Positions 24,001-27,000 of a stretch of DNA of 64,000 nucleotides are shown piece by piece. Numbering within the stretch: position 1 is the first letter of the stretch; the number at the start of each line of letters is the position of its first letter. Made by a program: the position numbers. Source of the stretch: an uncultured Planctomycetota bacterium (GTDB taxonomy: Bacteria; Planctomycetota; Phycisphaerae; Tepidisphaerales; Tepidisphaeraceae); NCBI GenBank assembly GCA_963841915.1, contig CAWJEN010000005.1, forward strand, positions 1-64,000. Reading direction: 5' to 3'.

Positions 24001-27000
24001 AGCATTGCCGGGATCAGTCTGCTCGTCGGTGGCATCGGGATCATGAACATCATGCTCGCCAGCGTCACCGAACGCACCCGCGAGATCGGCATCCGCCGAG
24101 CCATCGGTGCCCGGCGCGGCCAGATCATCCAGCAGTTCCTCATCGAGACGGTCGTGCTCTCCACCGCCGGCGGGGCGATCGGCGTCGCGCTGGGCGTGAC
24201 TATCCCAGAGATCATCGAGCGATACGCCGACATGCGCACGATCGTCCAGCCGTGGATGGTCGGCCTGAGCCTCGGCATCAGTGTCCTGACTGGCATCGTT
24301 TTCGGCCTCTACCCGGCCGTCCGGGCGGCGAACCTCGATCCGATCCAGGCGCTGCGGCACGTCTGATGTCGTGCCTTACTTCGTCATGAACGCCCACTGC
24401 GTCTTGTCGACCGGGACCACGCTCAGCCGCGACTGCTTGACAAGGTCCCAGTCGGCGAACCGCTTGTCGGCCTTCACGTTGGCAAGTGTTTTGGGCCGCT
24501 CGATGCGTCGCTCGAACTTGATGTCGACGACGTCAATGCCGTCCTTCTTGTACGGCTGGCCGACCGTCTCTGCGATGGCGAGGGCCGCCTTCTCTTTGCC
24601 GGTGTGGTAGATCAGGCACTTGTCGCCCGGCTTCATCGCGCGGACGTTTTTGAGGGCCGCGTTGTTGCCAATGCCGTCCCAGCAGGTGCCACCGTCGCGC
24701 TCGAGGTCGTCGACGCTGTAGTCGGTCGGTTCGGTCTTAAGAAGCCAGGCGGCCATGGCAGCACGGTACGGCCGTTGCAAAGGCGGCAAGGCATGACGCA
24801 ACTCATCGGCTGGGCCGCCTCGGCCGTCCTCGTCTGCACCATCGGCAGCCAGGTCTTCAAGCAGTGGCATGACGACACGAGCAAGGGCGTCAGCCTCTAC
24901 CTCTTCCTCGGCCAAATACTCGCCAACGGCCTGTTCCTGACGTACGCCAGCCTCACCGGCGACGTTGTCTTCATCGTCGCCAACGCGTTGCTCCTCGTCA
25001 CCAGCCTCGTCGGCCTGGCGATCAAGTACCGCCATCAGCAACGCGGCGAGTCTCCATCAACTGCCGAAGCTCAGTAGCTCCGTAGCACGCCGATGACGAC
25101 CCCTTGCACGCGCACCTCCTCGGCCGGCACGATGCGTGGTTCCATGGTGTGATTCGCCGGCTGCAGCCGAACGTTGCGGCCTTCGGCGTAGAAGCGCTTC
25201 AGTGTCGCCTCGCCGCTGTCGAGCAGGGCGACGACCTGTTCACCGTTTCGGCACGACTCGCGCCGCTCGACCACGACGTAGTCGCCGTCACAAAGGTGAT
25301 CTTCGATCATGCTCTCGCCGCGCACCTTGAGCACAAAGACGCCGTTAGGCCGGTTGTAGAGTTGCTCGAGGTCGAGTTCTTCGCGGTTTTCGACAGCTTC
25401 GATGGGCGAACCTGCCGCAATGGAGCCGACGAGCGGCAACTTGCTGCCGCGGTCTTCGTCCGGCAGCAACTCATCCGACGTGATGGTCAGCGAGCGGGCC
25501 TTGTGCTTATCGCGGGTGAGCAACCCCTTCTTTTCAAGGGCACCGACGTGTTCGAAGACAGTGACCTTGCTGGTGCCGAGCTGGTCGGCCAGCTCCTGCA
25601 TGGTCGGAGCGACGCCGTTGAGATAGCGGTAGTCGCGGATAGCGACAAGGACGTCGAGCTGGCGGGGCGTGAGGTTCATGGCGAGTCGAAGAGGCCGATG
25701 GAAGGTCGTGGACCGTACGGAACGTGTTCCGGCGGACATTAACCAAACAGACCATGCCCCGTCAACCTCCCGAACAATTGTTCATCGGGCAATATTGAAT
25801 CGGCGGCCGACGCGGGTGCGTCGGCCGCCGCTTGTAATGTGGTGCGAACCGTCATAAGCCGAGTTTTGTGCCTCCACACAGCGTGCGGAGGTGCGGTCAT
25901 TTCTCTGGGACGACGATCGCTCGTCGCCTCGTCGGATCGCAAGCGATCCAGTAGCGGCCTACCCGCGGGCACACGCGTCGGGCCGACGCGACTGTTGCCA
26001 GTGTCCCGCTGTTTGGCCTTGCTGCCGGTGGGGTTTGCCCTGCCACCTTCGTCGCCGAAGGCGCGGTGCGCTCTTACCGCACCTTTTCACCCTTACCTCG
26101 TGAGAGGCGGTTTGTTTTCTGTGGCACTTTCCGTCGATCGTAAAATCGCCTTGCCGTTAGCAAGCACCGTTACCCACGCGGAGTCAGAGCCTCCGCTTCT
26201 GCAGTTCGGACTTTCCTCACGCCGGACGCAAGGCCCGACGCGCGACCGCTCGGGGCCGCACCGCCCGTAGTCTAGCCGCTTATGTCTCCGCACCTTCGCC
26301 AATTGCTCGGGCTCGACGCGTCGCCGCTGTTCATCATCGCAGGGCCCTGTGTGATCGAGTCGTTTGACCTGTGCGTACGAGTTGGCGAGACGATGAAAGC
26401 CGCCTGTGAAGCGGCGGGTGTGACGTACATCTTCAAAGCCAGCTTCGACAAGGCCAACCGTTCCAGTGCGGCCAGCTTTCGCGGGCCGGGCATCGACGAA
26501 GGGCTCGACGTACTCGCCAAAGTCAAAGATGCGCTATGCGTCCCGACGCTGACGGACGTGCACGAGCCCGACCATCCCAGGGCAGCGGCGGAGACTGTCG
26601 ATGTGCTCCAGGTGCCTGCATTTCTCGCCCGGCAGACAAGCCTGCTCAAAGCCTGTGGCGAAACCGGCCTTGCCGTCAACATCAAGAAGGGCCAGTTCAT
26701 GGCTCCGGTCGAGATGCAGACGGCGGCAGATAAAGTGCGGTCGACCGGCAACGACAACGTCATGCTCTGCGAACGCGGCACCTTCTTCGGATACGGCCGC
26801 CTCGTCAACGACTTCACCGGGCTCCGCACCATGAGCGATGTCGGCTGCCCCGTCGTCTTCGACGCGACCCACTCGACGCAGACACCCGCCAGCCTCGGCG
26901 GGGCGAGCGGGGGCGACCCGACGATGGCGCCGATCCTGGCCCGAGCGGCCGTCGCGGCGGGGGTTGAGGGCTTGTTTGTCGAGTGTCACCCCGAACCGTC

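Follow-up and report, generated by a model that had tools for sequence, protein, structure and literature searches.

In this work we describe an 11-bp direct repeat that is very probably the LexA operator of the Tepidisphaerales and of other Phycisphaerae; we infer from sequence that LexA is its binder. The predicted operator repeats a heptamer, TGTT(C/A)G(G), head-to-tail across a 4-nt gap, with a period of 11 bp (one helical turn). It can be written TGTTMG(G)-N4-TGTTMG(G), where GG may follow either half, and it sits on either strand, sometimes as three half-sites in a row. The proposed targets are lexA (with two inverted operators), recA, imuA-imuB-dnaE2, a PA0069-family radical SAM gene, dnaB and topoisomerase VI B, and further an HTH/ABC-ATPase/GNAT operon, an unnamed 200-aa gene, uvrA in about half of the species and some transposases. 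One LexA dimer would bind two same-facing half-sites, as in Alphaproteobacteria, and operators that overlap the -35, the spacer, the -10 or the start region would block RNA polymerase; upon DNA damage, RecA filaments would cause LexA self-cleavage at Ala89-Gly90 and derepression. RecA-dependent induction is established for the LexA family, and in the present case repression, RecA-dependent induction and all start sites are predictions. The proposed mechanism is that of the usual SOS switch, and the geometry of its box is known; what is new is the full motif, a wider regulon (recA, dnaB, topoisomerase VI B, the HTH-ATPase-GNAT operon, transposases), a motif change within the phylum linked to the LexA recognition helix and a recA leader RNA. 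A preliminary description of this DNA had proposed that lexA, imuA-imuB-dnaE2 and the radical SAM gene are targets of a direct-repeat LexA operator, which our results support. It had also called the regulon small and mutagenesis-centred, a view that is not supported with dnaB, topoisomerase VI B, half of the uvrA genes and the HTH-ATPase-GNAT operon among the candidates.

The window analysed is a stretch of 64,000 nucleotides from an uncultured member of the Tepidisphaeraceae (referred to as G000 in genome comparisons). It carries lexA on the minus strand (25071..25679, start ATG at 25679), which encodes a protein of 202 aa that scores 178 bits against NCBIfam TIGR00498 (cut-off 111). As read from this gene, LexA has a winged HTH with the recognition helix SKVTVFEH, and an alignment to solved LexA chains places the cleavage site at Ala89-Gly90 and the catalytic residues at Ser123 and Lys161; the predicted protein is intact, having the winged HTH and both the Ala-Gly site and the Ser-Lys dyad. 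LexA is found in 137 of the 141 genomes of the order Tepidisphaerales. The inferred promoter consists of a -35 hexamer TTGACG (25760..25765, minus strand), proposed from its conservation in relatives, and 18 nt away a -10 hexamer TAATGT (25736..25741, minus strand), proposed from sequence and conservation. A TTG(A/C)(C/A) element lies 11-13 nt from the first box in 27 of 29 relatives, and a stringent promoter scan returned no site at the inferred lexA -35. The first putative operator (box 1, 25732..25749, minus strand, 15.5 bits) is the direct repeat TGTTTGG-TTAA-TGTCCGC, which is kept in relatives and covers the -10 hexamer, as previously noted. The second (box 2, 25714..25731, plus strand, 12.6 bits) is an inverted copy, CGTACGG-AACG-TGTTCCG, over and just 3' of the inferred transcription start. 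Upstream of the -35 lies a palindrome, GAACAATTGTTC (25772..25783), that resembles a Firmicutes-type box. On sequence grounds it is an extra half-site pair and not the family motif: CGAAC-N4-GTTCG, with at most one mismatch, occurs in only two of 29 relatives' lexA regions. Further upstream is the RNase P RNA gene rnpB (25839..26260, minus strand; Rfam RF00010, 200.8 bits), and a perfect 13-bp GC-rich hairpin between its 3' end and the lexA promoter (25801..25830) may insulate lexA from rnpB read-through.

The arrangement of two oppositely oriented boxes, already proposed from footprinting, was confirmed on a larger sample: the forward box is present in 73 of 76 distinct lexA upstream regions and the inverted box in the same 73, as scored with a matrix partly trained on these same regions. 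The earlier count of a first box was 19 of 29 lexA regions; with upstream reads extended to 1500 nt, GTTHGR-N5-GT is found at 29 of 30 loci. In several relatives another short gene intervenes and the lexA promoter lies 220-490 nt away, which probably accounts for the lower figure. Several lexA genes of Phycisphaerales have no box within 600 nt. In a cultured Tepidisphaerales strain (L292) the lexA region carries both boxes, at 20.2 and 15.5 bits. The gap between the forward and inverted boxes is 3 nt in 22 promoters, 4 in 42, 5 in seven and 6 in two, and this variation favours two independent sites over one palindrome. In the 42 promoters with a 4-nt gap (out of 73) the two boxes spell TGTTC-N4-GAACA, and six of 29 lexA regions match this word within one mismatch, as would be expected if LexA bound this inner palindrome and the outer half-sites were accessory. 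We consider this highly improbable, since the other 31 promoters have a different gap (3, 5 or 6 nt), and since TGTTC-N4-GAACA is found in at most one of the 18-30 regions of every other gene set and its spacing is unenriched in 153 non-lexA target regions.

In these 153 regions, pairs of half-sites peak at direct spacing 11 (133 vs 14 expected), while neither known palindromic spacing is in excess (2 vs 5 and 4 vs 4 expected). Lesser peaks were seen at direct spacings 7 and 15 and at convergent spacing 13. De novo expectation-maximization (EM) searches, run with no prior, recovered tGTTcg-N5-TGTTcGg separately from the radical SAM, dnaB and imuA sets (log-likelihoods 243, 181 and 177, vs 71-79 for shuffles), and the same word from a pool of 39 non-lexA regions (252). 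GTTM-N7-GTTH is present in 13-20 regions per target set of 18-29, and in one of 30 regions of the control gene rpsB. The consensus GTTHGG-N5-GT given in the preliminary description holds at lexA but fits only 7 of 29 recA, 4 of 29 radical SAM and 4 of 18 imuA regions; judged from sequence, it is a special case, confined to lexA promoters, of the heptamer repeat.

Conservation at individual genes was scored with leave-one-gene-family-out matrices on orthologue upstream regions, as a rule the 30 best matches per gene to this genome's protein with its own row dropped, and with thresholds set at the 95th and 99th percentiles of this genome's 400-nt upstream regions. The relatives in these sets share kinship and the counts are hence not independent; one unpublished genome, G062, provides one row in the recA, uvrD, uvrA and topoisomerase VI B counts and in alignment A1. 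At the two thresholds respectively, the box was found in 29 and 27 of 29 lexA regions, 26 and 20 of 29 regions of the radical SAM gene (NF033668 above cut-off), 23 and 19 of 29 dnaB regions and 16 and 13 of 18 imuA regions (18 usable of 20 fetched). Shuffled sequences passed in 6-16% and 0.5-2% of cases, and rpsB in 5 of 30 (about 3 expected) and none of 30. For uvrA, 10 and 5 regions passed among the 20 of 30 loci that reach the gene start, own row dropped; the earlier statement that uvrA scores low is thus correct for this genome (rank 216) but not for the half of its relatives that carry a box.

Two gene sets lay outside all training. Topoisomerase VI B, a gene found in 16 of 46 genomes, has a site of at least 11 bits in 12 of 13 informative relatives, nine of them above 15 bits, two further loci having no upstream DNA. 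The HTH operon, made up of genes for a double-HTH protein and an ABC-type ATPase with a GNAT gene further along, has a site of at least 13 bits in 23 of 27 regions (shuffles 2.6%; two loci were too short). It has the densest boxes, with two or three tandem sites at its own promoter, where TTGACA is itself a half-site. The unnamed 200-aa gene carries sites in five of five relatives, scoring 8-16 bits. Outside the order, dnaB has a box in none of five genomes (best score 7.3 bits), and its link to the motif looks order-specific. By this reading of upstream regions, dnaB, topoisomerase VI B, the HTH-ATPase-GNAT operon and two transposases are candidate new members of the regulon.

Within the genome, the simple gene finder that we used called 3071 genes and missed imuA, which was located separately. 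The ranks reported previously were broadly reproduced: dnaE2 ranks 3, the imuA site 12, lexA 13, the radical SAM gene 14 and uvrD 18 of 3071. In relatives the region directly 5' of dnaE2 is mostly uninformative because dnaE2 follows imuB, and the operon head was used in its place. The umuD gene has a site of 10.9 bits (rank 84), and dinB has no box (rank 859). Among the top 20 sites, about half, such as those at rimO, trxA and PEP-CTERM genes, are unrelated or untested. When the strict pattern was counted over whole genomes, it did not exceed a reversed-pattern control except through IS copies (61 vs 43, 42 vs 55), so that single-genome matches are unreliable.

The position of box 1 raises the question of whether the motif is an extended core-promoter feature, or a sequence kept by descent, with no repressor involved. 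The box lies over the -10 at lexA, dnaB and the radical SAM gene, and TTGACA is a half-site in the HTH operon, which are the observations that this explanation would account for. However, the box follows the -10 on the opposite strand at recA and imuA, and lies in the -35 and spacer of the HTH operon. Register and strand relative to the -10 differ among lexA, the radical SAM gene, recA, imuA and the HTH operon, a variation that a core-promoter element would not permit. In addition, only about 30 of the 3071 upstream regions reach 13 bits and rpsB passes in 0 of 30 at the 99th percentile, and a matrix built only from the relatives' second lexA boxes, which are free of the -10 constraint, ranks dnaB 2 and lexA box 2 fifth of 3071. 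There is thus very little room for this explanation, and we retain the LexA operator.

The preliminary description placed recA outside the regulon, which does not agree with the relatives: 24 of 29 recA regions in the order pass at the 95th percentile (leave-out matrix; 15 of 29 at the 99th), and in other orders of the class eight of eight recA promoters carry the box. The sites lie about 150-350 nt upstream of the start codon, ahead of a long leader, and the low rank of recA results from scan windows shorter than this leader. In G000, recA ranks 1505-2208 with windows of 200-250 nt, near the rank of 2078 given in the preliminary description, and 33-85 with windows of 300-400 nt (33-73 at 300 nt). 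In relatives, a score of 9 bits is reached by 9 of 29 recA regions within 200 nt and by 25 of 29 within 400 nt. In G000 three overlapping sites of 10.8, 9.5 and 9.5 bits, individually weak, extend across the inferred promoter, and recA ranks 4 on a tandem-site score that was devised after these sites were seen.

The recA leader is itself a structured, conserved RNA. It has a 5' helix, the loop of which forms a pseudoknot by pairing with a 7-mer further downstream, in five different Watson-Crick versions, and a hairpin ahead of the ribosome-binding site. Across 12 leaders chosen by hand, 97% of cells are paired, both sides have changed in 8 of 23 pairs, and none of 500 shuffles scores as high, with the structure derived from the same 12 sequences that scored it. 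The leader gave no Rfam match for 11 loci at gathering threshold, nor for one leader at E up to 5. In this order, one recA half-site doubles as the first strand of the leader's 5' helix, and the conservation of this half-site could have another cause, namely the RNA helix. At the recA promoters of the other orders, however, the leader's 3' hairpin was not found and the box is present in eight of eight. A second layer of control at recA may come from this pseudoknotted leader RNA, which is undescribed and has bases of its first helix in common with the operator; this proposal is part of a joint reading, taken up below, that we hold only tentatively.

The identity of the binding protein has to be weighed against other regulators that recognize direct repeats. 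Repeats of period 11 are typical of OmpR/PhoB-family regulators, the densest sites are those of the HTH operon, and dnaB and topoisomerase VI are outside the textbook SOS genes, so that a regulator of OmpR/PhoB type, or the HTH protein of the ATPase-GNAT operon, might control the whole set, lexA included. Three genomes (G048, G110 and G024) argue against the HTH protein: they have no full-length match to the HTH-family profile (only sigma region-4 matches, E 1e-7 or worse), and yet they keep strong boxes at recA, the radical SAM gene, ruvB, lexA or dnaB, which makes this protein an unlikely binder. More generally, the target list is the classical SOS core, and the box is gone where the LexA helix changes or where lexA was not found. 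Control by a regulator other than LexA, of which the HTH family is the one surveyed in the genomes, is for these reasons unlikely.

The link with the LexA helix comes from recA regions across the phylum. A box of at least 13 bits is present in eight of eight regions in other orders with the SKVTVFEH helix, in eight of 24 in other classes with related helices (the other 16 have no box within 500 nt), in none of 12 in two families with the helix SPNGVMCH, which we take to be Planctomycetia, in none of 12 where no lexA was found at E 1e-20 with this query, and in none of four with weak lexA matches; shuffles gave 1-3%. In each group the helix was read directly for some members only, and ten genomes received theirs from their family; four of the genomes without lexA were classed from absence in the match table, and the samples are small and made up of kin that are not independent. 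On these sequences, the box co-varies with the LexA recognition helix across the phylum. In the SPNGVMCH group, a palindromic TGTAC-N4-GTACA-like word occurs in 11 of 17 regions (shuffles 8%), and elsewhere in 0 of 8, 0 of 24, 2 of 12 and 1 of 29. This word is a tentative sister motif, as the pattern was drawn from the same sequences that were counted. In a tree restricted to Planctomycetota, the SKVT-helix LexA proteins of Phycisphaerae form one clade (support 96/95). A long LexA linker was also considered as the feature that enables direct-repeat binding: from the helix to the Ala-Gly site the distance is 45 in Phycisphaerae, and two cleanly measured SPNGVMCH proteins have 40, but values across box-bearing genomes run from 40 to 51.

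LexA boxes are known from several other phyla. In the sister phylum Verrucomicrobia the LexA box is, reportedly according to Erill et al. in 2016, TGTTC-N4-GAACA, and the same authors are said to have described a Verrucomicrobia lexA promoter with tandem sites that spell other motif types. The half-site TGTTC is common to both phyla, but the Verrucomicrobia consensus so reported is a palindrome and the motif described here a direct repeat; a palindrome of that type was found in 0-1 region per non-lexA set and is only a by-product at lexA. The Firmicutes box CGAAC-N4-GTTCG (PMC9578287) shares the GTTCG half-site, one such palindrome being that at 25772-25783, and at the targets it was found in 0-2 of 18-30 regions in any set. 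In Caulobacter crescentus and other Alphaproteobacteria the box is GTTC-N7-GTTC (PMC9578287 and PMC8565304): half-site core, direct-repeat geometry and 11-bp period are the same, and lexA, recA, imuA-imuB-dnaE2 and the radical SAM gene are common core targets. Compared with the alphaproteobacterial box, the present one belongs to another phylum, is a heptamer with a conserved G(G) after GTTC and frequent C-to-A changes (TGTTAGG, TGTACGG), and has dnaB, topoisomerase VI B and the HTH-ATPase-GNAT operon as extra targets. This likeness lies in the box, our LexA tree covering Planctomycetota only. In Balneolaeota, a LexA direct repeat with another half-site, TTACACATATTTTWTACATA, was also found by footprinting and was confirmed by EMSA, with a regulon of lexA, recA, translesion polymerases, a helicase and a radical SAM protein; according to the same paper, which has no occurrence of Planctomycetes, direct-repeat recognition by LexA arose several times (PMC7739468). 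We found no LexA motif for Planctomycetota in the literature searched, which was without subscription journals and motif databases, and the 2016 Verrucomicrobia paper may mention Planctomycetes.

The operator and its target list can be tested across the whole class. They add a further direct-repeat LexA case, to which the same phylum tentatively offers a palindromic sister motif, and so bear on how LexA changes motif geometry. LexA control of dnaB and topoisomerase VI would be unusual, and our literature search found no paper joining these terms. Taking the results together, the SOS switch of Tepidisphaerales may have taken over dnaB (the single replicative helicase gene), topoisomerase VI and the HTH/ABC-ATPase/GNAT operon, with the leader RNA as an added layer at recA and with LexA having switched between direct repeat and palindrome within the phylum; as a whole this joint reading is possible but rather doubtful. 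If it is true, damage would directly boost fork reloading and decatenation, the doubled lexA operator would spell both forms, and the Planctomycetota would be a natural test of LexA motif-geometry change. The HTH/ABC-ATPase/GNAT operon, which is unstudied, may on this reading act in DNA modification.

Several other genes were considered. The uvrD gene, listed in the regulon by the preliminary description, keeps its high rank in this genome but is weak in relatives (8 of 29 at the 95th and 5 of 29 at the 99th percentile) and gave an unrelated GC-rich word in the de novo search, so that we do not retain it as a core member; one of its two sites in G000 overlaps a dispersed parS-like repeat with 122 copies in the genome. 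The island integrase, also listed, ranks 16 with one matrix but 266, at 8.1 bits, with the final one, and is not supported. At parB/nuoD the strong site lacks conservation, five relatives scoring 10.6 bits at best. Boxes at fliE, a DEDDh exonuclease gene, nrdJ, udgX, dnaE1, ruvB and addB were seen in one to three genomes each and are leads, not members. Finally, G047 has 14 copies of one 16-mer and G111 five copies of another, and those inspected, five and two respectively, precede DDE transposases.

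Perfect copies of the box, the 11-bp direct repeat that is the putative LexA operator, lie 45–100 nt upstream of the transposase in two unrelated insertion sequences of the genomes compared (loci L408, L412, L413, L417, L418, L423 and L428), and in both elements the box is followed by GTAGCGCC. In one relative (G048) two boxes adjoin tRNA genes (L409 and L414), at sites that resemble the ends of islands. In the genome under study, G000, a box that scores 13 bits with the motif matrix is located between the divergent dnaE1 and PolX-like genes (contig C5, 790810–790857), and a box at this place is also seen in G024. 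The radical SAM gene, a candidate member of the regulon, carries a -10 element about 7 nt upstream of its ATG (L088–L117), a spacing from which its transcript looks leaderless, and in the same upstream regions a conserved ACAAACAATT element precedes the -35.

Some members of the order have a small acidic ORF, about 80–120 codons long and with a DPxLxP...L.P.E motif, between the lexA promoter and lexA (L018, L020, L023, L025 and L030). The lexA promoter of G100 is doubled as a long inverted repeat close to a contig end (L004, positions 1–221), which may represent a divergent promoter or an assembly artefact. In families whose LexA has the SPNGVMCH recognition helix, a palindromic word resembling TGTAC-N4-GTACA is found at recA and lexA (L552–L561 and L262–L266), which makes it a candidate for a second LexA motif of the phylum.

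Sequence comparison of the recA 5' leaders of Tepidisphaerales (L058–L087; in G000, contig C6, 551318–551600, minus strand) points to a conserved, pseudoknotted structure with compensatory changes, in which a hairpin, GCCGG-CUGA...AUAC-CCGGC, precedes the ribosome-binding site. Rfam searches gave no match, either for 11 loci at the gathering threshold or for one leader at E values up to 5. Our guess is that the leader serves translational control of recA.

An operon on the plus strand of G000 contig C6 (1184743–1187026; also L456–L485) encodes a double-HTH protein, an ABC-type ATPase, detected in 34 of 61 genomes, and a GNAT protein, and is broken up by a small gene on the opposite strand. We take it to be reminiscent of Mom-like GNAT/ABC-ATPase DNA-modification modules.

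Several housekeeping genes look split in the G000 assembly (rpsB, fumC, purH, mutL and umuC), probably by sequencing frameshifts. The whole genome also contains 122 copies, over five contigs, of the parS-like palindrome TGTTYCACGTGRAACA, five of which lie in the window (40916, 40983, 42784, 62413 and 62489). The copies are mostly paired, 58–86 nt apart with GC-rich flanks, a layout resembling that of REP-type dispersed repeats, and a cluster of them is located next to parB.
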